Positions 3,783-38,063 are shown, numbered from the stretch's first letter. The stretch: DNA of 64,000 nucleotides from an uncultured Muribaculaceae bacterium (GCA_964636965.1 CAZWST010000001.1:16302-80301); one strand, 5' to 3'. A program made the numbers and translations. The notes: generated from the sequence alone by a model not told the origin.

Positions 3783-6143
3783 ATGGAATTAAATAAATTT
3801 AGAAATAGTACTAAGGTTGAATTTAATGAGAATTTAATTGAATCTATTCTTGGGGATTTTATTAAGTCTAATCTTCCTTTTTACAATCAAAGAACTTCTT
3901 TAATGTCTTGTATAGAACTTGACCCTTTTGTTTCGGGAAAAGTAGATGCTTTAGAAAATGAAGAATTCATGAATGAGATGATGCTTAATATGTGTTATGA
4001 TCAGTGTCATGGTAAAGATGAATTTAATAAACTTGATAAGAATAATCAAGTAAAGATGGGTAGTATATTTTATAAGAGAATAAAGAAACAAATATTTGAG
4101 TGCGGTCAAGTAGTTTATGACATGTCTGGTGTTAATCAAGAAGATGATTATAAAGACATGGAACATGAATTTATAATTAAAGTTAATGCAGGAGATTTTA
4201 TTTATGCATTAAATAGCCTTTATAGACATTTACGTGCATGTGGTCTTGATAATATTAGAATAGTTACACCTTCTACAAGATTTATTTGTGCAGGCTATAA
4301 CGCTCCAATTAAGATTAGATGTAACTCAGAACATCTAGAAGAAACATTAAAGTTTTTAGATGAAATGGAAGATGAACTAATCAATATTGTTTTACCTGTT
4401 CATCCAATATATCATGTTTCCTATGCTTGGTATGGTTATGAACAAGTAAGAAGTGATGGGATTACTTCACCTTCGGTTTTAACAAATGCTATATATGATG
4501 CTATAAAAGATGTTGTGGAAGACTATATTAAAGATGACTACCTAATGTCTGATGGTACTTTATGTCGTGAATTTTATCAAGAATATAATAATAAACATGT
4601 AGCTTTGAGAGTATTACTTAATGAAATGTTAACTCAAGATTATGACTATACTTTAAATAGTATTGCTGCTGCAACAGAAATTAAACTTAGTCGTTGGAAT
4701 ATAGATAAAAATGATTGTTTAAGATATGCAGAAGTTAATGAAAAGTTAAATGAATTATTTGGGGAAGTCTTAAGTGATGATGAATATCGTGAGTTAAAAG
4801 CTAAAGAAGCGCTTGAGGCTAAAAAAAACGAATTAAAAGAACAAATAGAGGATAATGATGTCATAAGAAGAATTTCTGATAATACGGGTATAGCCGCAGG
4901 AAATCAAGAAAGAGCCGATTTTGTTAATATGGATTACATGTCCATGCTAGGCGGAGCATTTAATAATGTTTTAAGTGGAGAAAATCCTCAAAGCATTTCT
5001 GATGGTCTAAAAATAATAGAAGATTACAAAGATTTGGAAAGACAAGAAAAAATTGGATTTGATCAAGATTTAATTGGTGATGAACCTGTTAATAGTCAAA
5101 GTAATTTAGAGAGTGTATCAAGAGGAATAGATCTTGCAATAAAAGCTATAGAAGAAGCTGAACAAAGAGAAATGGAAGCAAACAATAGGTCTTTATCATC
5201 AGATTTAGACTTAATTGATATTTCTGGTGGAGCTACTCCTAAAGTTGATCAAAGTAAGGTTGTTAATATACCTGTTGGAGAATCAAGCAACCTAAATTCT
5301 TTTGCCTCTGGTAAAACTGAAGTTTTAACAGATGATATTGAAACGGTTAAAGGAATTCTTGCAAGTGAAAATAAAGGTGATTCTAAGGGTAAGCCTGAAA
5401 GAGTAAACCCAGATTCTTACTGTTTAGATTATATAACTGAAGACGGTGTTTTAATTCCAGATTTAAAAGATGTATCTTATCGTGGCAATAACTTAGTTGA
5501 AGCTTTAAAAGATGGTGGAAATCAAACTTCACTTGATAATATTAAGGCAATAGCTAGTCATTTTGGATTAACTGACTATGAGGGTACAAAAGAACAAAAT
5601 AATATGTTACTTGATATCTTAAGACACTTAGATAACTATGAAATGGATGGTACCGTTAAAGGTACTGGAGTAAAAGCTTTTGCTTCAAATAATTCAAATA
5701 ATCAAAGTCAAGTTTCAGAAGAGGTAAGTGAACCTCAAAATATTATAATTGAAGATGCTACTAAGAAAGATGAAGAAGAGGCTCCACAAGAACAAATTCA
5801 ATTAACTGTAACTCCTTTAGATATTGAGTATAATGAAAAATTCAGAGATTCATATAAGTATAAGTATTCTCAATATGTTAAGGATACTAAAATACTTGAT
5901 ACCCCTGTTGCTGGTACAGATTATACTGTTTTAGATTACTTTATGCATTTTGATTTATATAGTTACTATAAATCTGATTCAGTATTTGTATTACATGAAG
6001 ATGGTATAAAAGTAAATGGTTTTTATTTCACAATGAATTATTTAATTCCATACTTAACAAACTATGGACCTGAAGATTTAAATGTTATTATGTCTTACTT
6101 TGTTGAAGAAATATTACCTCCGGAAAAACAACCAAAGAGATAA
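3783..6143 (+). CDS. Large hypothetical protein (786 aa) with central acidic, probably disordered region
   Basis: Long ORF with RBS AGGTGA; no recognised motif. Confidence 0.7.
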   Translation: MELNKFRNSTKVEFNENLIESILGDFIKSNLPFYNQRTSLMSCIELDPFVSGKVDALENEEFMNEMMLNMCYDQCHGKDEFNKLDKNNQVKMGSIFYKRIKKQIFECGQVVYDMSGVNQEDDYKDMEHEFIIKVNAGDFIYALNSLYRHLRACGLDNIRIVTPSTRFICAGYNAPIKIRCNSEHLEETLKFLDEMEDELINIVLPVHPIYHVSYAWYGYEQVRSDGITSPSVLTNAIYDAIKDVVEDYIKDDYLMSDGTLCREFYQEYNNKHVALRVLLNEMLTQDYDYTLNSIAAATEIKLSRWNIDKNDCLRYAEVNEKLNELFGEVLSDDEYRELKAKEALEAKKNELKEQIEDNDVIRRISDNTGIAAGNQERADFVNMDYMSMLGGAFNNVLSGENPQSISDGLKIIEDYKDLERQEKIGFDQDLIGDEPVNSQSNLESVSRGIDLAIKAIEEAEQREMEANNRSLSSDLDLIDISGGATPKVDQSKVVNIPVGESSNLNSFASGKTEVLTDDIETVKGILASENKGDSKGKPERVNPDSYCLDYITEDGVLIPDLKDVSYRGNNLVEALKDGGNQTSLDNIKAIASHFGLTDYEGTKEQNNMLLDILRHLDNYEMDGTVKGTGVKAFASNNSNNQSQVSEEVSEPQNIIIEDATKKDEEEAPQEQIQLTVTPLDIEYNEKFRDSYKYKYSQYVKDTKILDTPVAGTDYTVLDYFMHFDLYSYYKSDSVFVLHEDGIKVNGFYFTMNYLIPYLTNYGPEDLNVIMSYFVEEILPPEKQPKR

Positions 6144-6166
6144 AAGGATACTTGTATCCTTTTTAT
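6143..6166 (+). terminator. Rho-independent terminator
   Basis: AAAGGATA / TATCCTTT stem then T run. Confidence 0.65.
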
Positions 6167-6193
6167 TATGTTATAATTTTATCAGGTGATATT

Positions 6194-6853
6194 ATGAAGT
6201 ATAAGACAATGGATGAATTATACAAAATATATGATAGAATGCAAAAAAGGTATGGAGATAAGAATTTAAATTCTATTTATAATGGAGGATGTATAGATAA
6301 TCCAGATATTTGTTTTGTTTTTATGAATCCAACTAGAAGGAATATTGCTGCTGATAAAAGTTGGACTGGCCCTAAACATCCTTGGATTGGAACAAAAAAT
6401 ATTTGGACTTTATTTCATGATCTTGATTTAATTGATGATGATATTTTTAAAGAGATTAGAAAGAGAAAAGGAAATGAATGGAATCCGGAGTTTGCAAATT
6501 TGGTATATGACAATGTAAAAAAGCATAAATTTTTTATTACTAATTTAGGAAAATGTACACAAGTAGATGCAAGGGCGTTACCTGATAAAGTATTTTTGGA
6601 ATATAAAAAATATCTAGAATACGAATTTAATATAATAAATCCTAAAGCAATAGTGTTATTTGGTAATCAAGTTAGTTCAATCATGTTAGATGAAAAGATT
6701 TCAGTATCTAATGTTAGAAAGAAAAAGTTTGTAAGAAATATTAATGGGCAAGATTTTAACTTTTATTCAGTTTATTATCCAGTTGGTAATGGTTTTTTTA
6801 ATGTAGATAAAGCAATTGAAGACATCAAGTGGATAATGAGTCAAGCAAAATAA
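6194..6853 (+). CDS. Uracil-DNA glycosylase superfamily protein (atypical motifs)
   Basis: Motif A-like CFVFMNPT, FITNLGKCT (cf family 4 ITNxVKC), motif B region VYYPVGNG; start ATG 6194 after AGGTGA. Confidence 0.6.
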   Translation: MKYKTMDELYKIYDRMQKRYGDKNLNSIYNGGCIDNPDICFVFMNPTRRNIAADKSWTGPKHPWIGTKNIWTLFHDLDLIDDDIFKEIRKRKGNEWNPEFANLVYDNVKKHKFFITNLGKCTQVDARALPDKVFLEYKKYLEYEFNIINPKAIVLFGNQVSSIMLDEKISVSNVRKKKFVRNINGQDFNFYSVYYPVGNGFFNVDKAIEDIKWIMSQAK

Positions 6854-6901
6854 CCAGATTTGTGGTATAATAGCATCATTAATTTTTTAGGGGATGAAGA
6901 T

Positions 6902-7978
6902 ATGACTAATATTAATATAAAGTCTAAAGAAGATTTAGAACTTTTTAATCAAATATTAAATGACAATATAGCAATGTTATTTGGTGATAATGATGTTGTT
7001 ATAAAAAATCTATTTAAAGAAAAAGTAATGGAAAGATTAGAAAGCGTTGAGATACATGGCTGGGACTATAAAGATAATGATATAAATGAATCGGTTCATG
7101 GTTTGACTAAGTTTTCGGATAATGGGTATACCAGTATAAAAATGTATGGATTAGATCACTTTGATGGAGATAAAAAGCATATTGATTTAATATATTCTCA
7201 TGAATTATGGCATGCTTTAATGGTTATTTTTAATCATGTATATGGTTCATCTTTTAAAAGATCTGCCGATTTAGAAGGATATAAATATGATGTAAGCAAT
7301 TATTCGGGATTCTTTAAATGTGATGATGATGGTTATGAACGAACTTCCGGGTATTATATGACGGATAATTTATGTCAGCTACTTGCGTTAGCTATTGTAA
7401 AAAAGAAGAATAATGATGACTTTATCATAGATGATTTATTTAAATATAGTATTGATGATGAATTACTTACATCTCCCGTAGATGATTTAATTACATTCTT
7501 TCAAATGTTTACTTCTGCATTTAGTTTAACTAGTGATGAGTGGATGTCTAAAAACTATCAGCTTCATAAGGGAATACTGGAATCAACTGTTAATAAAACA
7601 AACATTTTACCTAATAATATTTTTATTACAGAAAGTATGAGAAATCCAATAGCTATCATGGATGAATTTAATAAATATGTAACTCATACTTCATATTTAG
7701 CTTTATTATCTCAAATTGATCGTCTTTATGATAAATATCTAAGAGCTGGAGTACTTGATGCAAGAGGTTTTATGCAAGTAACTTCTATATTAAGTGAATT
7801 TGTAAATAAAAGATTATATGATTACGCGATGAAATCATTATTAAGTGAAGATGAGTACAAATCCTTAATTGATAATTTCAATCAATTACGCAAGTCATTT
7901 ATGAAAGAAATTAAGGTGTATAAAGTAACTAATGCCAAGAAAAAGTTCAAAAAAGCAGTAAAAAAGTTATTAAAGTAA
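6902..7978 (+). CDS. Putative zinc metallopeptidase (HExxH)
   Basis: YSHELWHAL motif; otherwise unrecognised; start ATG 6902 after RBS AGGGGA. Confidence 0.45.
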   Translation: MTNINIKSKEDLELFNQILNDNIAMLFGDNDVVIKNLFKEKVMERLESVEIHGWDYKDNDINESVHGLTKFSDNGYTSIKMYGLDHFDGDKKHIDLIYSHELWHALMVIFNHVYGSSFKRSADLEGYKYDVSNYSGFFKCDDDGYERTSGYYMTDNLCQLLALAIVKKKNNDDFIIDDLFKYSIDDELLTSPVDDLITFFQMFTSAFSLTSDEWMSKNYQLHKGILESTVNKTNILPNNIFITESMRNPIAIMDEFNKYVTHTSYLALLSQIDRLYDKYLRAGVLDARGFMQVTSILSEFVNKRLYDYAMKSLLSEDEYKSLIDNFNQLRKSFMKEIKVYKVTNAKKKFKKAVKKLLK

Positions 7979-8008
7979 GAATAATATAAGATTTATTCTT
8001 ATTTTTTT
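7977..8008 (+). terminator. Rho-independent terminator
   Basis: AAGAATAA / TTATTCTT stem then T7. Confidence 0.7.
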
Positions 8009-8033
8009 GATATAATTAAAATAGGTGAATTGT

Positions 8034-9410
8034 ATGGCAAGTATAAGTAATGATTATTTCACTATTCAGTGTAGGGAAGAATATAAACCATATCTTGATA
8101 CTATTTTAGAGATGGTTTCTAAAAAAGGAGAAGAAGTTAGAAGATTTTTTACGTGTTCTGACTATCGACCTGTAAAGGTTACTTTATTTGATGATTTAGA
8201 AGATTTAAAAGATGAAGCAACAAAGACTAAGAAAAGATTTGAAGATTATGCTGAAGGGTCTTTTTCAAATAAAGGTATAGGTGTATATGTAAAAGATACA
8301 TTAAATAATAACAATTTAATTTATGTTGTTAATAGAATTGTTCATCAATACAGCCATATAATATATGCATCAGTTTGTAAGGAAGAAGATGGTCATGCTT
8401 TATGGTTAGATGAAGGTATTGCACAAACATTATCTGGTGAAAGATCATCTTTACAAAATAGTAATGAAAAAAGTAAAAGTGCTTTTTTAAGTAGAATAGT
8501 ATGTCGAAGAAAAGAAATACCTAAACTTGAATATTTAAATACTGAAGGTAATGGTAAATATTCAATTGAGTCACCAAGATATTCTGGCTATTTACTATGT
8601 TATTTTATGGTAAATTATTTATTATCTTCTAAAGTCCCTGGTAATATACCAATTAAAGATGATTATCTATTATTGGATAAATCTATTAATATTTGTGAAA
8701 AACCTGCAGCAATAAAAAAATATGAAGAGAAAAATGTTCCATTAAGAAATAGATATAATTTTAATTTATTATTAACTGATCCAGAGTATAGAAAAAAAGT
8801 AGAAGAAACTTTAGTAGTTAGAACTATTAATTATTTTGGTTCTAATTTAGGTGTTAAAATGTCTTCTGCTTCTTATAGGCATGTTAAAACTCCTCAAGAT
8901 ATACTTGATTATATGTATACTAATTTTGCCTATGGATGGTATGATGAAAAAAATGAACTACATAAAAATCCATTTGATTTTGAAAAGCGATATCGTGTTT
9001 CTTCATTCAAAGAAATATTAAAAACTTCTTATGGAACTAAACTAGAATATGCTAAATTTATTCTAGTTACATTAAAAAGACTTGGTTTTCAAGCTTCGAT
9101 ATTATTTAATGAGAGCATTGATGAACTAGATCATGTTAAATTAGAACCAGCTGTTGTGTATTTAGGTAGAAATAATCAGTTTTATCTTGTATGTGTTCCT
9201 TCTTCTAAATATGAGGGAATTCATAAATTTTCTTCATTTAAAGATTTGTTAAAAGGGTATATTTCTTCGATGGAAGAAGGAGATATACTTTATGAAAGTC
9301 TTGATATACCTGATGGTTTAACTTATCAAGAACTAGTTGATTATGTATCAACTTCAGATAAAATATATGAAGTTCCTAAAAATAATAATAATGATTTAAG
9401 TAAGTGCTAA
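8034..9410 (+). CDS. Two-domain protein: MA-clan peptidase-like N-domain (HQxxH) and transglutaminase-like C-domain lacking the Cys
   Basis: VHQYSH...WLDEGIAQ resembles HExxH...EGxA with Glu replaced by Gln; C-terminal YGTKLEYAKFILVTLKRLGF resembles the GxCxxYA core with Lys in place of Cys. Confidence 0.4.
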   Translation: MASISNDYFTIQCREEYKPYLDTILEMVSKKGEEVRRFFTCSDYRPVKVTLFDDLEDLKDEATKTKKRFEDYAEGSFSNKGIGVYVKDTLNNNNLIYVVNRIVHQYSHIIYASVCKEEDGHALWLDEGIAQTLSGERSSLQNSNEKSKSAFLSRIVCRRKEIPKLEYLNTEGNGKYSIESPRYSGYLLCYFMVNYLLSSKVPGNIPIKDDYLLLDKSINICEKPAAIKKYEEKNVPLRNRYNFNLLLTDPEYRKKVEETLVVRTINYFGSNLGVKMSSASYRHVKTPQDILDYMYTNFAYGWYDEKNELHKNPFDFEKRYRVSSFKEILKTSYGTKLEYAKFILVTLKRLGFQASILFNESIDELDHVKLEPAVVYLGRNNQFYLVCVPSSKYEGIHKFSSFKDLLKGYISSMEEGDILYESLDIPDGLTYQELVDYVSTSDKIYEVPKNNNNDLSKC

Positions 9411-9427
9411 AAAAGCACTTATTTTTA
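9402..9427 (+). terminator. Rho-independent terminator
   Basis: AAGTGCT / AGCACTT stem then T run. Confidence 0.7.
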
Positions 9428-9436
9428 TGGTATAAT
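9428..9436 (+). promoter_or_regulatory. Extended -10 promoter of the four-gene operon
   Basis: TGGTATAAT, 17 nt upstream of ATG 9453, RBS AGGTGA in between. Confidence 0.55.
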
Positions 9437-9452
9437 TTTATTAGGTGATAGT

Positions 9453-10211
9453 ATGTCTGATATTATAAGAAAATGTGAAATATTAATTGCTATGCATAAA
9501 AAAGGAATGCTAGGCGGAGAAGTAATGCCAGAAGATGAAAATCCCCATTATGATTTAGAATCTTTAGAAAATTATTTATATTTTACGTTACCAATGTCTT
9601 TAAATTATCAAAGGAATTCTTATACTTTATGGGAAGGCGCAAATAAAACTGCGAAGGATAAGAATACTTCTTTTGTTTTTGATCCAACGGAAGTTTTAAA
9701 AAGAAGTTTTGAAGAAGTTCAAGAAGCATTAGTTAAATATAAGGTTGCATTACAAAAAAATAAGCAAACCGAGATATGGATTAAATTATGTCATACATTT
9801 ATAGACTTATTTGATGGAGATATAAGAAAGTTATTTAAAGAAAATGATTATGATGTTAATAAGATAAGAGATTTTATTTTAAAACATAAGAAAGATTTTC
9901 CTTATATAAGTGGGACAAAGTTAGTTAACTATTGGCTTTATGTTATAATGCAATATACGGATACTTTATATAAAAACCCAGAATGTTTAACTGTTGCTCC
10001 TGATACACATGTAATAAAAGCTACTCATCGTTTAGGTCTTATAAGTGATGAAGAGATGGAAAGTTCTAATGTTCAAGAATTAGTAATTGAAGCTTGGAAA
10101 AAAGTATTTGAAGGAACAAAATATAAACCTATTGATATTCATACACCTTTATGGCTTTGGAGTAGAGGCGGATTTAGAGAATTAGATGAAAGTGTATTAG
10201 ATGAAAAGTAA
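9453..10211 (+). CDS. EndoIII-like helix-hairpin-helix DNA glycosylase homolog without Fe-S loop
   Basis: FPYISGTKLVNYW (HhH with Lys), VAPDTHVIKATHRLGL (cf VDTHVxRVxxRLGL), HTPLWLWSRGG; paralog of 26161..26910. Confidence 0.55.
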   Translation: MSDIIRKCEILIAMHKKGMLGGEVMPEDENPHYDLESLENYLYFTLPMSLNYQRNSYTLWEGANKTAKDKNTSFVFDPTEVLKRSFEEVQEALVKYKVALQKNKQTEIWIKLCHTFIDLFDGDIRKLFKENDYDVNKIRDFILKHKKDFPYISGTKLVNYWLYVIMQYTDTLYKNPECLTVAPDTHVIKATHRLGLISDEEMESSNVQELVIEAWKKVFEGTKYKPIDIHTPLWLWSRGGFRELDESVLDEK

Positions 10212-10869
10212 TGAGTTTAAGTCTTTAGTTAATGATATTAGTAAATGTAATAAATGTTTAAATCTTGGTGATAAATCTTTAATAAATTTTTATGGTTCAG
10301 AAATGAGTTTATCTATTCCATCCATTTGGACAGATTGGTTAAATCATCTCGATAGTGAAGTAATGATTATTGGTCAAGATTGGGGTCCATATAAAGATAT
10401 GCTAAATATTTATGAAAGATATAAAAATGGGGAGGAATATGAAAAGTTAATTCAAGAAGAAAAGAGTTTAACTAAAAGAAATTTATTTAAATTTTTAAGT
10501 TTAACAAATGAAAACTATAATTTAAATAAAATCTATATAACTAATGCAATTATGTGTGCAAGAAGGGGATCTAATTATCGGAGTAATAATATTAATTTAA
10601 AATATTCAACAACTTGTTGTTCTAAGTTTTTAAAAAGACAGATTGATATTGTAAAACCAAAAGTTATTGTTACTTTAGGGTATTATCCGCTTTTATCACT
10701 TTCAAATATTTTTGGATTTTGTATAGAAAAAAACTTAACAGAAACTATTTTAAATACACCAGTTATAAAAACAGATGATTATATAATAATTCCTGTCTAT
10801 CATCCTGCAGCACAGATAAGTGTTGATAGACAAATTGAACAATATAAAAAAATATGGGAGAATTTATGA
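10201..10869 (+). CDS. UDG superfamily (family 4-like) protein with unusual GQDWG motif A
   Basis: CNKC, VMIIGQDWGP, ITNAIMCARR, TTCC, VYHPAAQ; ATG overlaps the upstream gene end. Confidence 0.6.
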   Translation: MKSNEFKSLVNDISKCNKCLNLGDKSLINFYGSEMSLSIPSIWTDWLNHLDSEVMIIGQDWGPYKDMLNIYERYKNGEEYEKLIQEEKSLTKRNLFKFLSLTNENYNLNKIYITNAIMCARRGSNYRSNNINLKYSTTCCSKFLKRQIDIVKPKVIVTLGYYPLLSLSNIFGFCIEKNLTETILNTPVIKTDDYIIIPVYHPAAQISVDRQIEQYKKIWENL

Positions 10870-11543
10870 AGAGTAATTTAGATATATGGGCAGTTCAAGA
10901 AGCAAAAGAAGAAATATTTACTGCTCTAGAACAAATAAAGGGTGGCTTAAGTATCATATATGATAAAGTTGCCTGTGAAATAATGATAGGATCAAATAAC
11001 ATAACGAATCGTTTATTTGACTTGTTTCTTTATAATGAAGAGAGTGATACTCTTATTATGGTAATGAAAGGTTCTAAAGCAAGTAAAGAAGATATGATAC
11101 ATTATTTAGAACAACATAATTTGAAGTATGTTGAAGTAACTTTCTTAAAAGAAGATGTAGACAATCAAATAAGTGAAAAAAAGGAAGAAGTGGAAGCTCC
11201 AGAATTATGGTTTGCAAGAGATGCTTATGTTTTAGATGATGCCTTAGATAGTAGCCTTGAAAGAAATGTAAATTCAGCTGTAATTATGCCAAATGTTATG
11301 GGAGATTTATCACTTTTTTATACTAATATTTTTGGTTATACTGAAGTAGTCGATGGAAGACTTTTTAAGGGCTTAGTTTCCTTACCTGATAAGCTAGTTT
11401 TGCTAGTAAATCAAGGAGAAGAAAAAGAGAGTATTAGCATATCTACTTTAGAGAAAAAAATCCAAGATAAAGGTTTTATTTATTCGATTGATGAAAGTAA
11501 TGATATTAGGTTATCAGGGAGTACTAATATAAGAACCAGATAA
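10866..11543 (+). CDS. Hypothetical protein (225 aa)
   Basis: ATG 10866 after GGGAGA overlaps the upstream stop at 10869; no motif recognised. Confidence 0.6.
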   Translation: MKSNLDIWAVQEAKEEIFTALEQIKGGLSIIYDKVACEIMIGSNNITNRLFDLFLYNEESDTLIMVMKGSKASKEDMIHYLEQHNLKYVEVTFLKEDVDNQISEKKEEVEAPELWFARDAYVLDDALDSSLERNVNSAVIMPNVMGDLSLFYTNIFGYTEVVDGRLFKGLVSLPDKLVLLVNQGEEKESISISTLEKKIQDKGFIYSIDESNDIRLSGSTNIRTR

Positions 11544-11559
11544 TTTTTTGAGGTGGGTT

Positions 11560-12921
11560 ATGGTAAATAATAATATTGTATGTGTTATTGATGGAGAAGC
11601 GGGTTCCTGTGGGAAAGCAAAGGTATGTGGAGAAATCGCTACTAATAAAAAGTATGGTGTTGGTGCAAGTTTAACTAATTCAATGCCTAATGCTGGTCAT
11701 ACTTTTGTTGATGAAACTGGGAATACTTTCTTATTTAGAAATATTCCAGTTGCTGTTGTAAATCCTGAAGTTGAACTTTTTATTGGTCCTAGTTCCGTAA
11801 TTGATTTAGAAGTATTTAAATCCGAATATGATACTCACGAACATCTAATTGGTAACCGTAAAATATATGTTCATGAATTAGTTCCTCTTGTAACAGAAGA
11901 ACATAAAAATCGTGAAAGAGAAATAATTAAAAGTGGGTCTACTTATCATGGATGTGCTGCATGTAATCAGGATAAGATAATTAGAAATCCTAATCTTGAA
12001 TTTTTTAAAGGATATAAGAATGCTGTTGTTTTAAAGAATGATGATTGGTTAGATTTACTATATAAACACTTGGATAACCCCGATGAAATTGTTTTATTTG
12101 AGGGTGCACAAGGCTGCGAGTTATCTTTAAACTTTAGTGGTGAACATCCTAATGTAACTTCGAGAAATATTTCAGTTTCTAATATGCTTCAAGAAGCTGG
12201 TGTTTCACCAAGAAGATTACTTTTTTCTGAAATGGTTATAAGGCCTTTTCCAATTAGAATTAATGATGTAACTAATTCTTTAAATTATGTTTATACAGGC
12301 GGTTATGGAACTGCTCAAAAGTTAACTTGGAGTCATATAAACTATTCAGCTAAGTTTGGTACATATCCTCAATTAGATCAATTTGAGGATTATGAAGAGG
12401 CTTTAACCGATGAAATGAAAATAAGATTATTAAATGAATCAAATAATAGAAGTCTTTTACAAATATTTGGACCTAATTATGCAAGTATAAAAATAGACGA
12501 TATCACAATTGCAGATGCTTTAGAAATGGAAAGACTTATTAATAAGGCAAAAGGTATTCGCAAGTATATTTCAGAGATTATAGATTTAAGTTATTTTGAC
12601 GATCCATATTTGATAGATTTATCTGAAACTACTTCAGTTACAAAACTTGAAAGAAAGATTTTTGATTTGGATATAAAGAAGTTAAAACAGAGTATACGTC
12701 TAAATGATCCTGATGGAATTTATTTAAATTTCTTTGAACATTTAGATAATAGGTTTTCTCATTTAAAATGTGAATTTGAAGAACTAGAATGTATTAATAG
12801 ATATATAAGAGAATATTTAAATTGGTTGGAGACGACTTTAGGAATAGATTTAAATCATTTAGGTACTGGAAAAGTAAATAATGAATATATAAAAAGAAAA
12901 GAGTTAATGTTTAAAGATTAA
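11560..12921 (+). CDS. Divergent adenylosuccinate synthetase (PurA/PurZ-like) paralog
   Basis: GSCGKAK P-loop (cf GDEGKGK), NAGHT, SGSTYHGCAACNQDK, LFEGAQG, HPNVTSRN; about 100-aa insertion and degenerate Asp-binding segment. Confidence 0.65.
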   Translation: MVNNNIVCVIDGEAGSCGKAKVCGEIATNKKYGVGASLTNSMPNAGHTFVDETGNTFLFRNIPVAVVNPEVELFIGPSSVIDLEVFKSEYDTHEHLIGNRKIYVHELVPLVTEEHKNREREIIKSGSTYHGCAACNQDKIIRNPNLEFFKGYKNAVVLKNDDWLDLLYKHLDNPDEIVLFEGAQGCELSLNFSGEHPNVTSRNISVSNMLQEAGVSPRRLLFSEMVIRPFPIRINDVTNSLNYVYTGGYGTAQKLTWSHINYSAKFGTYPQLDQFEDYEEALTDEMKIRLLNESNNRSLLQIFGPNYASIKIDDITIADALEMERLINKAKGIRKYISEIIDLSYFDDPYLIDLSETTSVTKLERKIFDLDIKKLKQSIRLNDPDGIYLNFFEHLDNRFSHLKCEFEELECINRYIREYLNWLETTLGIDLNHLGTGKVNNEYIKRKELMFKD

Positions 12922-12957
12922 CTTTTTTTAGATGTAAACTTATCTTTTTTTATAAAA

Positions 12958-12991
12958 TGTCACTTAGGTGTCACTTATTATTTGTTAAAAT
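12958..12991 (+). promoter_or_regulatory. Direct-repeat response-regulator box overlapping the -35 region, plus extended -10
   Basis: TGTCACTTA-GG-TGTCACTTA (12958-12977, 11-bp register), then TGtTAAAAT (12983-12991), upstream of the ABC operon. Confidence 0.5.
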
Positions 12992-13014
12992 GAATTTGTT
13001 CAAGGAGGAATAAT

Positions 13015-13686
13015 ATGGATTTATTAAAAGTTGAAGGACTTACAAAAATATACGGAAAGGGCGATAATAAAGTAGTTGCACTTGATAATGTATCATTCTC
13101 AGTTAAGAAGGGTGAATTTGTTGCAATTGTTGGAGCAAGTGGTTCAGGTAAATCAACACTTTTACACTTAATTGGTGGAGTTGATAGACCAACCAGTGGT
13201 AAAGTTTATATAGATGGTAATGACATTTATGATATGAATGATGATAAACTTGCAATATTTAGAAGAAGACAAGTTGGACTTATCTATCAATTTTATAATT
13301 TAATACCAATATTAAATGTTGAAGAAAATATTACATTACCAATGGAATTGGATGGAAGAAAAGTTGATAATAAAAAGTTAGATGAATTAATTGAATCTTT
13401 AGGTTTAACTTCTAGAAGAAAACATTTACCTAATGAACTATCTGGTGGACAACAACAAAGAACATCTATCGGAAGAGCAATGATTACTAATCCAGCAATA
13501 ATACTAGCTGATGAACCAACTGGTAACTTAGATTCTAAAGCTAGTGATGAGATTGTTGATTTACTTAAAATATCTAATAAAAAGTATCACCAAACTATTG
13601 TAATGATTACACATAACTTAGATATTGCATCCTCAGCTGATAGAATTATAAAAATTGAAGATGGACATATTGTTAAGGAGGATTAA
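13015..13686 (+). CDS. ABC transporter ATP-binding protein (MacB/BceA-like)
   Basis: Walker A GASGSGKST, signature LSGGQQQR, Walker B ILADEPT. Confidence 0.9.
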   Translation: MDLLKVEGLTKIYGKGDNKVVALDNVSFSVKKGEFVAIVGASGSGKSTLLHLIGGVDRPTSGKVYIDGNDIYDMNDDKLAIFRRRQVGLIYQFYNLIPILNVEENITLPMELDGRKVDNKKLDELIESLGLTSRRKHLPNELSGGQQQRTSIGRAMITNPAIILADEPTGNLDSKASDEIVDLLKISNKKYHQTIVMITHNLDIASSADRIIKIEDGHIVKED

Positions 13687-13688
13687 TA

Positions 13689-16376
13689 ATGAACTTGCTT
13701 AACAAACTTACTAAGAAAAACTTAGTATTAAATAAAAAAAGAACTATTGTTACAATAGTTGGTATAATTCTTTCAGTTGCTTTAATAACTGCTTTATCAA
13801 GTTTAGTTATAAGCTTTAAAAAGTCTGCTTTAGAATATGAAAAGAAAAGATCTGGCGATTATCATGTTTCTTTTTCACATGTCTTATCTAATGATATATC
13901 TAAATTAAAAGAAAATAGATATATTGAAGATGTTTATTTTTCGAAAGAAGTTGGGTATGCAAAATTAGATGGTATAAAGAATGAAGATAAACCTTTTGTC
14001 TATCTTCTTGCTTATGATTTTAAATCTTTAGATAAAATAGTAAAACAAAATGTTTTAGAAGGAAGACTCCCTAAAACAAGTAAAGAAATAGTTATATCTA
14101 AACATTTAAAAACTAATGGACGAGTTGACTTAAATATTGGTGATACAATAAAATTGGATATTGGAAAACGTTTAATTAAGGGAGAAGATTCTATTTTAGA
14201 TCAAACAAATCCTTATAATGCGGAATTGGAAACTTTTAAAAGTGATGAGGAACATGAATATAAAATAGTTGGTATAATAGAACGCCCTAGTTATTCAATT
14301 GAACCATATACAGCTCCAGGTTATACATTTATTACATGTTTAGATGAGATGAATGTTTCTATGTATAATGCTTATGTAAGATATAAGCATGAGTATTTGA
14401 GTGACCCTTATTATGTAACTGCTGATATTTTGGGAATAGATAAAAAAATCTATAAGACCTTTATGACTGGAGGAAATTTTAACTCTGAAGAAGAAATGAT
14501 CGAGTTTAATAAGAAATACCAAGAGGAAATGGAAAAAGCTCGATATGAAGTAGTAAACTTAAATAATTATTTAGTTTCACTTGAGTATCAAAATTTAAAA
14601 GATCCTTCAATGCAAGCTTTATATACTGTTGCTGCAATTGTTACTCTTATAATTATGGCTACATCAATTTATTGTATTAAGAATAGTTTTGATATTTCTA
14701 TAACTGAAAAGGTAAGACAGTATGGTATGCTTGCAAGTATTGGAGCAACAAAAAGACAAATTAGAAGAAATGTTTTATATGAAGCATTTATCTTAGGACT
14801 TATTGCAATACCAATCGGAATACTTTCAGGATTATTTGCATCATTTGTCTTAGTTAAAGTAACATCTATTTTATTAAGTGATGCATTAAATATAGAATTA
14901 AATTTTGGTGCATCAATTGGTTCTATATTATTATCAGTTGTTTTAGGCGCTGTGACTATTTATCTATCGGCAATTAAAAGTGCTAGAAAAGCTAGTAAAA
15001 TATCACCTATATCAGCAATTCGTAATAATAATGATATAAAAATTAAATCAAAGAAAATTAAATCACCAAAATTAATTAAGAAATTATTTGGTATTGGTGG
15101 GGATGTTTCATATAAAAATTTAAAGAGAAATAGTAAAAAATATCGTACAACAGTTATTTCAATTGTCGTATGTGTATCAGTATTCATCGCCCTTTATTCA
15201 TTTATGATGTTGGCTTTTAAAGCAGTTGATTTAAGTTATAAAGATACTGATTTTAATATAGATATTACTTTTAAAACTAATGATGATAAAAAAGATAATA
15301 TTATCAAAAAAATAGTAAACATTGAGGGTATAAAAGATTATTCAGTTAATGTTTCTAGATCATTTATATTAGATACTCCTAAATTTAGTCCTGCTTATGA
15401 TAACTATTATAAAAAGAATTATGAAATATCTGATGGTAAAATTGAAAACTTTGGTATAACTTTTATTAGTTTAGGAGATTATCAATATCGTAAATATATT
15501 CAAAGTTTGGGATTAAAATATGAAGATGTATATGATGGCGCAATTCTTTTAAATAAGCAACTTGTATATGAATATGATGAAAAAGCAAAAAAGGGAAAAA
15601 AACATGATTTAGATATATTTGATTATAAACGTGGAGATATATTAAAAGGCCATATGTATGATTATAATTGTGAAAGTACTGATGGTGATGAAGACAAGTG
15701 TTGGTTTGATACAAGTGTTAAGGTTTCTTTCTTAACTGATAAACAACCATTTGGTCAGGCTTCAAACTTTTCTGATAATGCTGTTATGGTTGTCAGTGAT
15801 GAATTTATGAAAAAGTATTCTAAAGTAAGAGATTATTATGAATTATTACTAGATGTAAAAAATCCTGATAAATTTCAAGACGAGGCAGAAAAAATATTAG
15901 AAGAGGCAAGTGACTATAACCTTTATAATGTTGATAAAGAAAAAAAGTCGAGTGAATCTCTTTTCACACTTATCGCAATATTCCTTTATGGTTTTATAAC
16001 AGTAATTGCTCTTATTGGTATAACTAATATATTTAATACAATAACTACAAGTGTTGAATTACGTGCTCGTGAATTTGCTACTTTAAAAAGTGTAGGTATG
16101 ACAAAACGAGAATTTAATAAAATGGTTAGTTTAGAAAGTATTTTCTATGGATTAAAATCACTTATTATTGGTATTCCAATTGGAAGTATTTTATCTTATA
16201 TAATTTATAAAGCTTTAATAGATGGAGATTTAGAGTTTGCTTATACTTATCCAACAACAGCTGTTATTATTTCTATATTTGCTGTACTTATTTTGGTAAC
16301 CGTTATTATGAAATACTCTATAAGTAAGATAAGCAAACAAAATACAATTGAAACAATTAGAAATGATAATATTTAA
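13689..16376 (+). CDS. ABC transporter permease with two FtsX-like domains
   Basis: 895 aa, TM clusters near residues 300-440 and 770-890, large extracytoplasmic segments, adjacent to the ATPase. Confidence 0.8.
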   Translation: MNLLNKLTKKNLVLNKKRTIVTIVGIILSVALITALSSLVISFKKSALEYEKKRSGDYHVSFSHVLSNDISKLKENRYIEDVYFSKEVGYAKLDGIKNEDKPFVYLLAYDFKSLDKIVKQNVLEGRLPKTSKEIVISKHLKTNGRVDLNIGDTIKLDIGKRLIKGEDSILDQTNPYNAELETFKSDEEHEYKIVGIIERPSYSIEPYTAPGYTFITCLDEMNVSMYNAYVRYKHEYLSDPYYVTADILGIDKKIYKTFMTGGNFNSEEEMIEFNKKYQEEMEKARYEVVNLNNYLVSLEYQNLKDPSMQALYTVAAIVTLIIMATSIYCIKNSFDISITEKVRQYGMLASIGATKRQIRRNVLYEAFILGLIAIPIGILSGLFASFVLVKVTSILLSDALNIELNFGASIGSILLSVVLGAVTIYLSAIKSARKASKISPISAIRNNNDIKIKSKKIKSPKLIKKLFGIGGDVSYKNLKRNSKKYRTTVISIVVCVSVFIALYSFMMLAFKAVDLSYKDTDFNIDITFKTNDDKKDNIIKKIVNIEGIKDYSVNVSRSFILDTPKFSPAYDNYYKKNYEISDGKIENFGITFISLGDYQYRKYIQSLGLKYEDVYDGAILLNKQLVYEYDEKAKKGKKHDLDIFDYKRGDILKGHMYDYNCESTDGDEDKCWFDTSVKVSFLTDKQPFGQASNFSDNAVMVVSDEFMKKYSKVRDYYELLLDVKNPDKFQDEAEKILEEASDYNLYNVDKEKKSSESLFTLIAIFLYGFITVIALIGITNIFNTITTSVELRAREFATLKSVGMTKREFNKMVSLESIFYGLKSLIIGIPIGSILSYIIYKALIDGDLEFAYTYPTTAVIISIFAVLILVTVIMKYSISKISKQNTIETIRNDNI

Positions 16377-20385: not shown

Positions 20386-21099
20386 ATGTCAAAAAAAAGC
20401 AGTAGCTTAGCACTTATTGCCGTGTGTGCAATATGTGCTTTTTTATATAATAATTATTTTTTAGAAAAAAAAGTAGAAGAACCAAATATACAATATTCAG
20501 AAGATATCTCGAATGTTTTACCTTATGATGGAACAAGTAAATATGTTGTTATTAATAATAATGAACCCGCCTTTTTAGAAGAAGATTTAGTTACAAGATC
20601 TTATGAATTTTATAGTGACCTTGATTCTTTAGGAAGAGCGGGAGTTGCTATGGCTTCTATTGGAATTGATTTAATGCCTAAAGAAGAAAGAGGAGAGATT
20701 GGTTCAGTTAAACCTAGTGGATGGCATACAGTAAAGTATGATTTTATAAATGGTAATTATCTTTATAATAGATGTCATTTAATTGGTTATCAATTAACCG
20801 GAGAAAATGCAAATGTTAAGAATTTAATAACTTGTACAAGAAACGCCAATACTGGTGTGATGCTAGAATATGAAAATATGGTTTCTAAATATATAAAAGA
20901 AACAGGTAACCATGTTTTGTATCGTGTAACCCCTGTATATCAAGGGAAAAACTTACTTGCTAGTGGTATAAATATGGAAGGTAAGTCTATTGAAGATAAT
21001 GGGGAAGGTATAAAGTTTAATATTTATATTTATAATGTTCAAGATGGAGTTAAAATAAACTATGAGAATGGGGATAGTGAAATAGATGAAGCAAGATAG
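20386..21099 (+). CDS. Secreted or membrane-anchored DNA/RNA non-specific endonuclease (Endonuclease_NS_2 type)
   Basis: N-terminal hydrophobic signal; RCHLIGYQLTGENANVKNLITCTRNAN matches the HLIGxQLxG...N nuclease core. Confidence 0.75.
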   Translation: MSKKSSSLALIAVCAICAFLYNNYFLEKKVEEPNIQYSEDISNVLPYDGTSKYVVINNNEPAFLEEDLVTRSYEFYSDLDSLGRAGVAMASIGIDLMPKEERGEIGSVKPSGWHTVKYDFINGNYLYNRCHLIGYQLTGENANVKNLITCTRNANTGVMLEYENMVSKYIKETGNHVLYRVTPVYQGKNLLASGINMEGKSIEDNGEGIKFNIYIYNVQDGVKINYENGDSEIDEAR

Positions 21100-21553
21100 A
21101 GTATTAGAAATTGCGAAAAAGAATTCAGAAGTAATGTTTGAATACTTAGAACAGTTTATGATGGATAAAGACACAATTAGTGGTATAATGGATTTTGAAT
21201 CGAGTAATAATAGATTAGTAGTAGGTATTTCGATTAATCAAGATGGAAGAGAAATTTTTAGAAGAGATTATGATATGGGGTTTTCTTCTATCTATGCCGA
21301 TTTTTTAACTCAAGAATTGGTGAGTAAGATACTCGATGCATTTTTAAGAAGTGAAAGTGTTGGAATTGGCGAGTATGCTTGTATAAAAGATCATCCAACT
21401 AATTCTCGTGATGGTATATATGTATTTAATAATCATAATTCAAAAGTAAATGTCAACTTTAGAGTTAAAGGAGATAATTTTTATGAAATTATGAATAATT
21501 ACAATAAGGCCTTAGATGAATATAGACAAGAGTCTAAACAAGTTAAAAGATAG
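21086..21553 (+). CDS. Hypothetical protein, possible cognate nuclease inhibitor
   Basis: Start overlaps the nuclease stop by 14 nt; cytoplasmic-looking, 155 aa; function inferred from position only. Confidence 0.3.
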   Translation: MKQDRVLEIAKKNSEVMFEYLEQFMMDKDTISGIMDFESSNNRLVVGISINQDGREIFRRDYDMGFSSIYADFLTQELVSKILDAFLRSESVGIGEYACIKDHPTNSRDGIYVFNNHNSKVNVNFRVKGDNFYEIMNNYNKALDEYRQESKQVKR

Positions 21554-21575: not shown

Positions 21576-21616
21576 CATAAGTTTAGATATTTTGAATAGT
21601 ATTAAATAGGTGATGA

Positions 21617-36406: not shown

Positions 36407-37300
36407 ATGAAAAATTATTATATTGATTTAGGTTCATCAACGATTAAAGTTTATGAGTATTTAGAATCTTTAGTGTTACTTGAAGAACATTCTATATATT
36501 TTAAAAACGACTTTGATGCTTATAAAGGGATAAGTGATGATAATTTAAAGGAATTATGTGAATACTTTAGCGAGTTACAAAAAAAGTATGATTTAAAATA
36601 CTATAATACTAATATATTTGTTACTGGTATATTTAGGAATTTAATTCAAGAGAAAAAACAAGAATTAGTAAAACTATTTAATGATAAGTTTGACTTACAT
36701 TTCAATATTATAAGTCATGGTATTGAAAACTATTATTTAGCTAAAGCTATGGAAAATGATTATAATGGTAAAAAAGTTTTAATCATTAATATGGGTGGTA
36801 AGACAACTGAACTCGTTACATTTGTTGGACGTGATGTAGTTTCAACTACTAATTTAAATATAGGTGTTGCCGATTTACTTAATAATTTTTCAAGAGTAAA
36901 TGAAGAGGTGAGTGGTAATACAGTAGAAGAGATGGAAGCATTTGTTTTTGATAAGCTAAAAGATTTAGATTTAGATAAAGACTATGATGTTGCTATATTT
37001 ACTGGTGGAGAAGAAAGATTTGAATTACTTACTTCATTTAACTTAGTAAAAAATACTTTATTTGATGATGGAATTCATAAATATATGGTTAGTTTAGAAG
37101 ATTATATTAAGGGAACTGAAAAAGTATTTAATGATATTACTATGGAAGAACTATATAAACTAATGCCACAAAATCCTAAATGGATGGATGGAGCAAGGAG
37201 TGGTGCAATTATTCCACTTTGCTTATTTAAATTAGCTAATGTTTCATGGATTATTCCATCTGATTTAAATTTAATCAATGGAGTAATAAATGACTTATAA
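36407..37300 (+). CDS. ASKHA-fold (Ppx/GppA-like) ATPase domain protein
   Basis: YYIDLGSSTIKVY and INMGGKTTELV phosphate-binding motifs. Confidence 0.5.
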   Translation: MKNYYIDLGSSTIKVYEYLESLVLLEEHSIYFKNDFDAYKGISDDNLKELCEYFSELQKKYDLKYYNTNIFVTGIFRNLIQEKKQELVKLFNDKFDLHFNIISHGIENYYLAKAMENDYNGKKVLIINMGGKTTELVTFVGRDVVSTTNLNIGVADLLNNFSRVNEEVSGNTVEEMEAFVFDKLKDLDLDKDYDVAIFTGGEERFELLTSFNLVKNTLFDDGIHKYMVSLEDYIKGTEKVFNDITMEELYKLMPQNPKWMDGARSGAIIPLCLFKLANVSWIIPSDLNLINGVINDL

Positions 37301-38063
37301 GAGTAATGATTATGATAAATTTGCATTAAAAAGACAACAAGATTTAATAAATGGCAATAAACCTTCACATCGTTTTGTTGAAAAACCAATGATGAAAAGT
37401 ATGATGCCAGATTTGAAAGATAAAAAGATATTGATGTTGGGTTGTGGAACTGGAGAAGAGTCAATTTTACTTGAAAGTTTTGGAGCAAATCCAACTAATA
37501 TTGTTGGAATAGATTTGTCGGAAGAATCAATTAGTATTGCTAAGAAGTCTTATCCACTTTTAGATTTTGTTGTAGGAGACATGAACAATCTTCCTTTTTC
37601 AGATGAAAGTTTTGATTTTGTCTATAGTAGTTTAGCAGTACATTATTCAAAAACTCCTGAACTTGTTTATAAGGAAGTATATCGTGTATTAAAAAGTGGT
37701 GGCTTATTCTTAGTTTCATTAGCTCATCCCTTAAGATGGGCATCAAGTGAATGTATGATTAATGATGAGATAGTTAGAGTAATAGGTGTTTCAAAAAGTG
37801 ATAATGGTAATACTGTATATGGCAATTATAATACTTTTTGTAAACATACTTTTTCATCTTTTGCTTGGCAAGATGATGGTGAGGTTTTAGAGTTTTACGT
37901 TGGTTCTCCTTCAATGCATTTTAAACTTTTAAGGAATGCAAATTTTAATATTATAGATTTTACTGAATCAAAATGTATTGAGGATGCAAAAGATGTTGAT
38001 ATTAATTACTATACAAAGAATGTTGAAGTACCACAGTTTATGGCATTCTTAGCCCAAAAATAA
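37290..38063 (+). CDS. Class I SAM-dependent methyltransferase
   Basis: ILMLGCGTGEES motif I, FDFVYSSLAVHY; overlaps the upstream gene by 11 nt. Confidence 0.8.
   Translation: MTYKSNDYDKFALKRQQDLINGNKPSHRFVEKPMMKSMMPDLKDKKILMLGCGTGEESILLESFGANPTNIVGIDLSEESISIAKKSYPLLDFVVGDMNNLPFSDESFDFVYSSLAVHYSKTPELVYKEVYRVLKSGGLFLVSLAHPLRWASSECMINDEIVRVIGVSKSDNGNTVYGNYNTFCKHTFSSFAWQDDGEVLEFYVGSPSMHFKLLRNANFNIIDFTESKCIEDAKDVDINYYTKNVEVPQFMAFLAQK

Follow-up and report, generated by a model that had tools for sequence, protein, structure and literature searches.

Adenylosuccinate synthetase (PurA) joins IMP and aspartate to give adenylosuccinate. Its phage relative PurZ (N6-succino-2-amino-2'-deoxyadenylate synthase) converts dGMP, aspartate and ATP to dSMP, and in this way starts the synthesis of 2-aminoadenine. 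Asp13 is 99% conserved in PurA; in phage PurZ, 100% of the sequences have Ser at this position. A Ser/Thr pair in PurZ makes room for the 2-amino group, and published work on the phiVC8 enzyme assigns S14, T262, F295 and Y298 to accommodation of the 2-amino group and to stacking of ATP. In the phage Z-cluster (MazZ, PurZ and DatZ), a gene for a nucleotide phosphohydrolase lies directly upstream of the PurZ-type ligase. Two other families are relevant here. Family 4 (Fe-S) UDGs combine the UDG fold with four Cys at the Fe-S ligand positions, a motif A of the form GE(A/G)PG and a motif B of the form HPxAQ. Qng1 (DUF2419), a queuosine-5'-monophosphate glycosidase, has an HhH-type two-lobe fold with an invariant Lys and Asp.

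The locus described here consists of four consecutive genes, g1 to g4, within a window of 64,000 nucleotides (the whole stretch of DNA that was analysed); its features are listed in Table 1. The genome is that of a low-GC gut Bacillus from a lineage with small genomes, in which a relative has a closed chromosome of about 1.5 Mb. A preliminary description had reported a terminator, a promoter and four abutting plus-strand genes with particular junctions and sequence motifs, and all of these are present at 9398-12921. The products of g1 and g2 are 252 and 222 residues long. The reading frames of g3 and g4 could begin at 10854 or 10866 and at 11548 or 11560, respectively; in both cases the second ATG is backed by the starts of homologues (MKSNLD for g3 and MVN for g4). 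The junctions g1/g2, g2/g3 and g3/g4 measure -11, -4 and +16 nt.

Table 1. Features of the four-gene locus and related genes in the window
Feature	Position	Strand	Evidence or remarks
Second UDG-superfamily paralogue, three genes upstream	6152..6853	+	PF03167 28.6 bits; UDG_fam4 35.5 bits
Intrinsic terminator of upstream gene	9398..9427	+	11-bp stem, 5-nt loop, U run; RNA folding
Extended -10 promoter element TGgTATAAT	9428..9436	+	Consensus match only
Ribosome-binding site AGGTGA	9443..9448	+	4 nt before g1 ATG
g1, putative HhH-superfamily N-glycosidase, unannotated family	9453..10211	+	Invariant Lys156/Asp184; predicted fold
g2, family-4-like Fe-S UDG-superfamily protein	10201..10869	+	PF03167; four invariant Cys
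g3, clade-restricted alpha/beta protein	10866..11543	+	33 homologues; AF2 model
g4, PurZ-type (Ser P-loop), adenylosuccinate-synthetase superfamily	11560..12921	+	PF00709; PurZ model best
Ppx/GppA-family (ASKHA-fold) phosphatase	36407..37300	+	PF02541 33.8 bits; 80% identical to g4-adjacent orthologue
SAM-dependent methyltransferase	37290..38063	+	Pfam; overlaps end of Ppx/GppA-like gene

The terminator overlaps the stop codon of the preceding reading frame (8025-9410). Its hairpin (9398-9424) folds with -11.8 kcal/mol (z = -3.65), which none of 200 shuffled sequences equalled; it was not called by a simple terminator scan. Inspection of the sequence revealed no good -35 hexamer for the promoter. 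The scan found no internal terminator within g1-g4, and neither scanning nor folding gave a convincing terminator 3' of g4; transcription may therefore run on into the ABC transporter genes that follow. In this genome g1-g4 most likely form one transcription unit. Their tight junctions are nevertheless ordinary for the window rather than distinctive: 92% of it is coding, and its 45 same-strand neighbour pairs have a median gap of 32 nt, with 20 of them separated by 20 nt or less and 10 overlapping.

Judged from its sequence, g4 is a PurZ-type enzyme and not a broken or canonical PurA. It matches PF00709 with 73.8 bits (above the cut-off of 27) and carries the catalytic His in an invariant MPNAGHT. 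The top NCBIfam model is that of PurZ (NF038379, 148.4 bits, below its cut-off of 300), while the scores against the PurA equivalogs lie far below their cut-offs (TIGR00184, 78.8 against 395.6; archaeal NF003295, 127.7 against 368), in keeping with the original view that g4 is PurA/PurZ-like and not canonical purA. The best PDB matches are the PurZ proteins of phiVC8 and S-2L, followed by PurZ0, and in a neighbour-joining tree g4 nests in the Ser-type clade. The Ser at the Asp13 position had been treated as an anomaly; it is indeed present (P-loop GSCGKAK), but it is the defining PurZ substitution. Ser16 is invariant in the family. Within the set of the 150 closest representatives, nearly every full-length sequence has G-S-x-G-K; two have Asp or Gly in place of the Ser. 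The proposed insertion of about 100 residues is also real (about 91 residues, at residues ~260-353, before the aspartate loop), but the loop after it, described as degenerate, is an intact PurZ-form loop, ETTSVTKLERK against ELTTVTKKVRR in phiVC8.

With canonical and archaeal PurA, g4 shares NAGHT (His41), SGST, EGAQG, VTSxN and the aspartate-loop Arg, and its family is strongly constrained, with a mean column identity of 70% and NAGHT, SGST, EGAQG and VTSRN kept. It differs from PurA in lacking both Asp13 and the GTP-specific NKxD, and in the equivalent of R303, which is Leu in g4 and Leu or Met in the family. With phage PurZ and PurZ0 it shares the fold, the catalytic core, the Ser for Asp13, the Thr of TTxVT and the R305 equivalent. 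As in PurZ, a PIR(V/I)-plus-insert loop replaces the GAGPFPTE segment, and the base pocket has the form N-F-x-x-aromatic: it reads LNFFEH (LNFFQH in the family), without the guanine-specific (N/T)KxD, which is consistent with an ATP-type pocket. Residues S16, T358, F391 and H394, all conserved together with R365 and the first two invariant, align with S14, T262, F295 and Y298 of phiVC8. The differences from phage PurZ comprise an overall identity of ~28%, the additional residues before the aspartate loop, the sequence of the P-loop, and the replacement of Phe12 (in the 2-amino pocket of phiVC8) by Ala14 and of Y298 by His394. These two replacements, and the score below the PurZ cut-off, count against the explanation that we favour below.

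The g4 family is cellular, not viral. Members are known from at least 105 species of gut Bacilli, and one of them lies on a closed 1.52-Mb chromosome; IMG/VR contains no match, and the genomic contexts are bacterial chromosomes. In 37 of 80 loci the gene immediately before g4 encodes a Ppx/GppA-like phosphatase, the other neighbours being variable, and this enzyme is the conserved partner of g4 in other genomes. A gene of this kind also stands upstream of a short relative of g4 (L146). In the present window the partner gene is 23 kb from g4. The methyltransferase gene that overlaps it has an orthologue between g4 and g1 in two other loci (L061 and L062; 79% identity to the L061 gene), and the window holds further genes for nucleic-acid scavenging, namely a nuclease, NUDIX, HAD and NT5C. 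No homologue of DatZ, MazZ or DpoZ was found near g4, and neither the window nor the fetched loci contained a canonical purA or a purB. Some g4 homologues lie near SIR2, DUF87 and FtsK genes, and on plasmids Ser-type PurA homologues form cassettes of two genes within accessory regions.

The pairing of a phosphohydrolase gene with a PurZ-type ligase gene is shared with the Z-cluster, and implies the same logic, from NTP or NDP to NMP to a succino-adduct. By analogy with MazZ, the Ppx/GppA-like enzyme would cut a tri- or diphosphate down to the monophosphate. The g4 enzyme would then transfer a phosphate from ATP to the 6-oxo group of its substrate, a purine (deoxy)nucleoside 5'-monophosphate, and aspartate would displace this phosphate. 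Because the Ser/Thr pair is kept and the Arg that contacts the 2'-OH is Leu or Met, we infer that g4 prefers a guanine-type (deoxy)nucleotide to IMP. The g4 loci differ from the Z-cluster in that the partner has a Ppx/GppA ASKHA fold and not a MazG or HD fold, the setting is cellular, there is no dATPase, and 23 kb separate the two genes in the present window.

The breadth of the family and its conserved catalytic core would also be expected if g4 were the diverged housekeeping adenylosuccinate synthetase of this lineage, g1 and g2 served ordinary base-excision repair, and the operon were a by-product of compaction, for which the coding density and the many tight junctions of the window speak. 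The apparently chromosomal location in so many species, the retained R305 equivalent, the lack of a canonical purA in the window and fetched loci, and the existence of archaeal Ser/Gly-type sequences that branch basally in the PurZ clade all fit such a reading. Yet the residue that is nearly universal in PurA is Ser in g4, NKxD is missing, the R303 equivalent is changed, and purB is not nearby. Furthermore, g4 evolves faster than its neighbours, with ~50% identity between the same genome pairs for which the Ppx/GppA-like protein has 80%, the methyltransferase 79% and g1 70%; it appears frameshifted in one genome, and in another (L032) the Ppx/GppA-like gene has no g4 after it. We consider a housekeeping role rather unlikely. 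Conversion of IMP to adenylosuccinate would also suit a gene that is inherited vertically and belongs to the core of a reduced genome, and this counts against our preferred explanation.

The protein encoded by g1 belongs to a very large unannotated family, with more than 2,800 homologue clusters without a Pfam domain. It lacks an Fe-S loop, has no PDB sequence or profile match, and falls below the sequence-level cut-offs of the HhH-GPD families (AGOG, 19.1 against 26.1; nth, 17.6 against 211.7). Its AlphaFold2 model (pLDDT 88.7) has the HhH two-lobe fold, and the invariant columns of the homologue alignment include Lys156 and Asp184, so that fold model and conservation agree with its earlier assignment as an HhH protein with the HhH Lys and the catalytic Asp. 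The top Foldseek match of the model is Qng1/DUF2419 (E 1.2e-4, TM 0.59-0.66), followed by MutY, MagIII, Ogg and AGOG, with probabilities of ~1.0 and E values of 0.03-0.3 for the first three of these. Compared with Qng1, g1 is ~70 residues shorter and has no match at the level of sequence or profile: PF10343 was not detected, and hhalign to a true Q_salvage protein gave a probability of 0.4%. A bona fide PF10343 gene is located directly after g1 in four genomes. We suggest that g1 may be a Lys/Asp HhH base-excision enzyme, which acts either on free nucleotides, like Qng1, or on DNA.

The identification of g2 as a UDG-superfamily protein with an odd motif A and clustered Cys is supported by its match to PF03167 (51.8 bits) and by four residues, Cys16, Cys19, Cys118 and Cys140, that are invariant in an alignment of eight homologues. 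Its best PDB matches are family 4 enzymes (4zbx, E 5e-9), with which it shares the fold, the Cys at the ligand positions and motif B (HPAAQ); its motif A, GQDWGP, is by contrast family-1-like (GQD), and its score against UDG_fam4 (TIGR00758) is 39.5 bits, below the cut-off of 125.3. It is probably an Fe-S UDG-like DNA glycosylase involved in base excision. The family of the second UDG-like gene (Table 1) is present in 12 of 44 g1 loci, 1-3.3 kb from g1. For g3, which is clade-restricted, we found only 33 homologues (against more than 550 for g4), and searches of PDB, BFVD and profiles gave nothing significant; its AlphaFold2 model (pLDDT 77) has no recognisable fold, and we propose that it may be an accessory protein.

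NUDIX, HAD and UDG-like genes are overrepresented around g1. Together with the NUDIX, NT5C and HAD genes of the window, and with the loss from g4 of the Arg that reads the 2'-OH, this is what might be seen if g4 salvaged or sanitised deaminated purine deoxynucleotides, for example by converting dIMP and aspartate to succino-dAMP and on to dAMP after the Ppx/GppA-like enzyme had stripped (d)ITP or (d)XTP, with g1, g2 and NUDIX in the same sanitation network. The scheme is purely inferential, the Ser and Thr of g4 suggest a pocket for a 2-amino group and not for hypoxanthine, and we know of no precedent; we regard the scheme as very improbable.

The order g1-g2-g3-g4 was found in one small clade, in which six genomes have the arrangement. 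All six share the ABC transporter genes downstream and five share two upstream genes, and because of these common flanks they represent one evolutionary event. Even within the clade the arrangement decays: g3 is absent from L013 and g2 from L017, and g2 is a fragmented pseudogene in L014, while g1 and g4 are kept in all six. Elsewhere g1 is mostly found without g2, g3 or g4 (38 of 44 g1 loci have no g4); conversely, 74 of 80 g4 loci have no g1, and only four have g2 or g3. The preliminary description had interpreted the four genes as a module combining base excision (g1, g2) with purine C6 chemistry (g4) for DNA modification, surveillance or anti-phage activity, and had stated that a failure of the genes to co-occur in other genomes would speak against this, which is largely what we observe. 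The gene identities on which it was built stand (HhH, UDG and PurA/PurZ-like); the conserved four-gene set does not.

A dedicated module would be consistent with the likely co-transcription, with the retention of g1 and g4 throughout the clade, with the linkage of g1 and g2 in other genomes (L030, L035, L037 and L038), and with the SIR2/DUF87/FtsK neighbours and plasmid cassettes mentioned above. In addition, three different gene orders place g1 and g4 no more than 5 kb apart, the second being g4-MTase-g1 (L061, L062) and the third g1-Qsalvage-NUDIX-HAD-...-Ppx-g4 (L029), which exceeds a chance expectation of roughly 1%. However, members of the clade can do without g2 or g3, most copies of g1 and g4 are not linked, and the high conservation of g1 and of the Ppx/GppA-like gene is that of core-like genes, unlike patchy island cargo. 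No component model of PADLOC 2.0 matched any of g1-g4, the Ppx/GppA-like protein or the second UDG-like protein; the set corresponds to none of the known systems of defence or modification, in line with the earlier remark that no such system had been described. A four-gene module appears improbable.

We tentatively propose instead that g1-g4 are a lineage-specific juxtaposition of separately inherited base- and nucleotide-handling genes, and not a dedicated four-part system. Taken as a whole, that is, with a PurZ-type g4, its phosphatase partner and the roles suggested for g1 and g2, this explanation has in our estimate slightly less than an even chance of being correct. It plays down the proximity of g1 and g4 in three orders, which hints at a real link; some residual support for such a link remains because the fold of g1 is closest to that of a nucleotide glycosidase.

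We know of no cellular use for 2-aminoadenine nucleotides, and this, like the absence of DatZ, MazZ and DpoZ homologues near g4, counts against our explanation. A bolder version, which we regard as a long shot, is that these small-genome gut Bacilli have a working chromosomal PurZ-type pathway, in which a Ppx/GppA-like phosphatase, the PurZ-like ligase and the host PurB would act in turn. The product would be 2-aminoadenine (Z) or a different non-canonical 6-aminopurine nucleotide, and its base, in DNA or in nucleotide pools, would be dealt with by the HhH (Qng1-like) and UDG-like glycosidases that recur nearby. The notable part of the locus is a chromosomal enzyme with the active-site signature of phage PurZ; if the pathway exists, a Z-type nucleotide would be made in a cell rather than by a phage.

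The four abutting genes g1 (an HhH-superfamily protein), g2 (UDG-like), g3 (with no recognisable fold) and g4 (PurA/PurZ-like) are listed in the table with the other features discussed. All of the motifs quoted in the preliminary description were found in the sequence, and its account of four plus-strand open reading frames with abutting or overlapping junctions, behind a promoter that follows the upstream terminator, was borne out by the ORF coordinates and by folding. The junctions g1/g2, g2/g3 and g3/g4 measure −11, −4 and +16 nt respectively, and the ATG starts of g3 and g4 match the N-termini of their homologues. The upstream hairpin was missed by a simple terminator scan and recovered by folding; downstream of g4, the scan and folding gave no convincing terminator. 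The four genes probably form one transcript. We note that the window is approximately 92% coding at about 26% GC, and that same-strand neighbours within it have a median gap of 32 nt and overlap in 10 of 45 pairs; tight spacing is the norm here, and hence is not special to g1–g4.

Features of the window, and two plasmid cassettes carrying PurA homologues
Feature	Location	Position	Details
Second UDG-superfamily paralogue	window	6152-6853	family-4-like; FVFMNPT and ITNLGKC motifs
Two conserved proteins	window	6860-9410	372 and 461 aa
Terminator hairpin of upstream gene	window	9398-9427	11-bp stem then U run; folds at −11.8 kcal/mol, z = −3.65
Promoter element TGgTATAAT	window	9428-9436	directly after hairpin; sequence match
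AGGTGA	window	9443-9448	after TGgTATAAT; from sequence
g1	window	9453-10211	+ strand
g2	window	10201-10869	+ strand
g3	window	10866-11543	+ strand
g4	window	11560-12921	+ strand
Endonuclease_NS_2 nuclease	window	20386-21099	secreted-type
DUF1848	window	23000-23890	
NUDIX	window	24354-24929	
HAD phosphatase	window	24962-25690	
ASCH domain	window	25785-26177	
NT5C deoxyribonucleotidase	window	29850-30452	
NUDIX	window	30416-30877	
RlmN/Cfr-like radical-SAM methyltransferase	window	31402-32430	divergent; 107 bits (cut-off 290)
Ppx/GppA-family ASKHA gene	window	36407-37300	80% identical to the gene preceding g4 in 37 of 80 loci
Cassette L267	Sinorhizobium medicae pMl5	7010-9072	
Cassette L268	Burkholderia thailandensis plasmid	6425-8768	

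The preliminary description proposed a dedicated module combining base excision with purine C6 chemistry, and named a lack of co-occurrence in other genomes as evidence that would count against it. This is largely what was found. Only six of 44 g1 loci contain g4. Five of these loci come from the clade of the window: all five have the same ABC-transporter genes downstream, and four have the same two genes upstream as well. The sixth (L029) has another arrangement. Within the clade, L013 is without g3, L014 has a fragmented g2, and L017 is without g2 and has an apparently frameshifted g4, so that all four genes are retained in L015 and L016 only. Together with the count of g3 homologues, which stands at 33, these losses indicate that the set is not conserved. 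At CATNCE010000021.1 (L004, L017 and L131), g4 matches in two frames, residues 1–377 and 362–449, so that either the gene is a pseudogene broken by a frameshift or the assembly is in error. L001 (9423-13073), the closest relative at species level, has no g3, and a 1216-aa ORF inserted there separates g4 from the ABC transporter genes.

The four genes are therefore probably not a unit, and a dedicated module is a possible, if weakly supported, alternative. On its side, g1 and g4 lie less than 5 kb apart in three orders: g1-g2-g3-g4 in the window, g4-methyltransferase-g1 in L061 and L062, and g1-Q-salvage-NUDIX-HAD-GIY-YIG-Ppx-g4 in L029. This closeness exceeds chance for a 1.5-Mb genome, though with only about three independent events, and points to some link. 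PADLOC gave no matches for g1–g4, the Ppx/GppA-like gene, the second UDG-like gene or the plasmid cassettes. The gene set matches no described system, but most probably it does not constitute a system in the first place. The value of the locus thus lies in the individual families.

The g1 family is very large and unannotated, with more than 2,800 clusters and no Pfam domain, and its members are at least 57% identical across the lineage. Sequence comparison with AGOG and Nth gave matches below threshold; searches of g1 against the PDB by sequence and by profile gave nothing, and no phage match was found. The AlphaFold2 model is confident (pLDDT 88.7), and its best structural match is the Qng1/DUF2419 queuosine-5′-monophosphate glycosidase (E 1e-4, TM approximately 0.6), followed by MutY, MagIII, Ogg and AGOG. 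Lys156 and Asp184 are invariant in the family; the same pair comprises the two residues common to Qng1 and HhH DNA glycosylases (PMC9881137). Alignment with hhalign to a true Q_salvage protein found nothing, and to a neighbouring Ogg-HhH-like protein gave a weak match (E 0.0027, probability 11%). Within the HhH superfamily, g1 represents an uncharacterised branch, which may act on DNA or on free nucleotides.

A bona fide PF10343 Q-salvage gene directly follows g1 in four genomes: in L029 (5992-7676), and likewise in L032, L036 and L052, g1 overlaps its start (PF10343, E 1.6e-42). In other genomes the gene after g1 encodes an Ogg-HhH-like protein of 256 aa that has a Cys cluster at its C-terminus, or g1 lies within an HhH-UDG-g1-NUDIX-PHP string (L030); UDG-like genes of two kinds, NUDIX and HAD genes are also neighbours of g1. 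The second protein, g2, is a UDG of family-4-like type, in which motif A reads GQDWGP, motif B reads HPxAQ and four Cys residues are invariant. For g3, no family matches were found in Pfam, PADLOC or NCBIfam, the PDB profile search was empty, and the AlphaFold2 model, of moderate quality (pLDDT 77), had no significant fold match in the PDB or BFVD.

The second UDG paralogue lies three genes upstream of g1, and its family occurs in 12 of the 44 g1 loci, 1–3.3 kb from g1. The two conserved proteins directly upstream have no Pfam match and are syntenic in close relatives; the 372-aa protein may be a metallopeptidase, judging by its HExxH motif (HELWH). Genes for nucleic-acid scavenging and nucleotide processing are concentrated at 20386-30877.

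By Pfam, g4 belongs to the adenylosuccinate synthetase (AdSS) family. PurZ scores highest among NCBIfam models (148 bits, cut-off 300), with archaeal PurA at 128 bits and bacterial PurA at 79 bits, and the closest solved structures are phiVC8 PurZ, S-2L PurZ and PurZ0, with Pyrococcus PurA after these. The preliminary description correctly saw Ser at the Asp13 position of the P-loop. This is no anomaly: PurA conserves Asp13 at 99%, and every phage PurZ and PurZ0 has Ser there (PMC12884076). Its Asp-binding segment, which had been described as degenerate, is an intact, PurZ-like loop (ETTSVTKLERK), shifted by an insertion of approximately 91 residues. In alignments, S16, T358, F391 and H394 of g4 correspond to S14, T262, F295 and Y298 of phiVC8 PurZ, where S14 and T262 are credited with making space for the 2-amino group and F295 and Y298 with stacking the adenine of ATP (bioRxiv 2025.10.22.683976; PMC8342488); F12 of phiVC8 PurZ is Ala in g4. 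Compared with PurA, g4 lacks the guanine motif NKxD, and the equivalent of R303, which reads the 2′-OH of IMP, is Leu or Met in the family, whereas the R305 equivalent is retained.

Nearly all full-length proteins among the 150 nearest representatives, drawn from 1.84 billion proteins, are Ser-type, two having Asp or Gly. In a rough neighbour-joining tree, which left out Asp-type archaeal sequences and is indicative only, g4 nests among Ser-type proteins beside shorter GSCGKGK/LNFFQH proteins. It is best called a bacterial clade with an insertion, a variant within the PurZ/PurA kind. The observations of the preliminary description stood and its interpretation did so in part. In our reading g4 is PurZ-type rather than a broken PurA.

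We predict that g4 uses ATP to ligate aspartate at C6 of a purine (deoxy)nucleotide; judging by its residues, the preferred substrate would carry a 2-amino group (guanine-type). The leading alternative, also plausible, is that this lineage has g4 as its AdSS, with IMP as substrate. Canonical purA and purB were sought in the window and the fetched loci rather than in whole genomes, and tblastn found neither there; a DNA-motif scan of genome_contigs for the low-GC GDEGKGKIV signature gave none from this lineage among the 120 matches listed.

The g4 family has more than 550 clusters. At least 105 species representatives carry it, all of them gut MAGs labelled 'Bacilli', 'Tenericutes' or 'Mycoplasmatota'; one carrier is a closed 1.52-Mb chromosome. 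Constraint is strong, with a mean column identity of 70%. A prophage or phage origin was rejected, since IMG/VR contains no member found by our search and phage records match with a mere 28% identity or so, over the N-terminal half. Clustering of neighbours identified one recurrent partner, a 298-aa Ppx/GppA-family protein encoded directly upstream on the same strand at a distance of about 29 nt in 37 of 80 loci; the remaining neighbours are variable. This gene is likewise found 5′ of a short sister protein of g4. By analogy with MazZ-PurZ, the Ppx/GppA-like enzyme, a phosphatase, is the likely functional partner of g4.

The position of the Ppx/GppA-like gene in the window indicates that g4 has parted from its usual partner in this clade. 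There it overlaps a SAM methyltransferase gene, the two together spanning 36407-38063. The orthologue of the methyltransferase gene sits between g4 and g1 in L061 and L062, which suggests an ancestral Ppx-g4-methyltransferase-g1 neighbourhood that was later rearranged. In L006–L009 (approximately 4900-15500), a g4 homologue (P0110) is flanked by a SIR2-domain gene on one side and an FtsK/SpoIIIE-like gene of 1544 aa on the other, close to DUF87 or DUF4365 genes. Such a setting differs from most g4 contexts and resembles a defence island or mobile element. These SIR2, DUF87 and FtsK neighbours prompted a defence-island reading of g4, which was rejected as the main one because in many species the family is conserved with the Ppx/GppA-like gene as its partner.

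Ser-type (GSEGKG) PurA homologues also occur as two-gene cassettes in plasmid accessory regions (L267 and L268). In one, the homologue accompanies a weakly dCTP-deaminase-like membrane protein; in the other, it forms a fusion with a zeta-toxin/AAA_18-like kinase and has DUF7002 as its partner. Both adjoin toxin-antitoxin, UvrD-like, transposase and PDDEXK genes, and may be uncharacterised defence or nucleotide-manipulating cassettes.

The locus is most likely a juxtaposition of separately inherited genes on one transcript; it would represent a lineage-specific gathering of genes that handle bases and nucleotides, in an organism that scavenges nucleic acids. We also draw attention to g1, an unannotated HhH family that clusters with Q-salvage, NUDIX and UDG genes and has a predicted fold most similar to that of a nucleotide glycosidase. 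The PurZ-type enzyme with its Ppx/GppA partner, rather than the four-gene operon, gives the finding its weight. PurZ-type enzymes with Ser for Asp13 are regarded as a phage hallmark of Z-genome (2-aminoadenine) synthesis, with few archaeal outliers (PMC12884076), and the literature searched contained no description of a PurZ-type family on bacterial chromosomes. This family is strongly conserved on the chromosomes of over 100 species of gut bacteria, where its partner is a Ppx/GppA-like phosphatase. That leaves two possibilities: either Ser-type enzymes can work as ordinary AdSS, which would alter the calling of PurZ in metagenomic data, or these bacteria make 2-amino-purine nucleotides for their own use.
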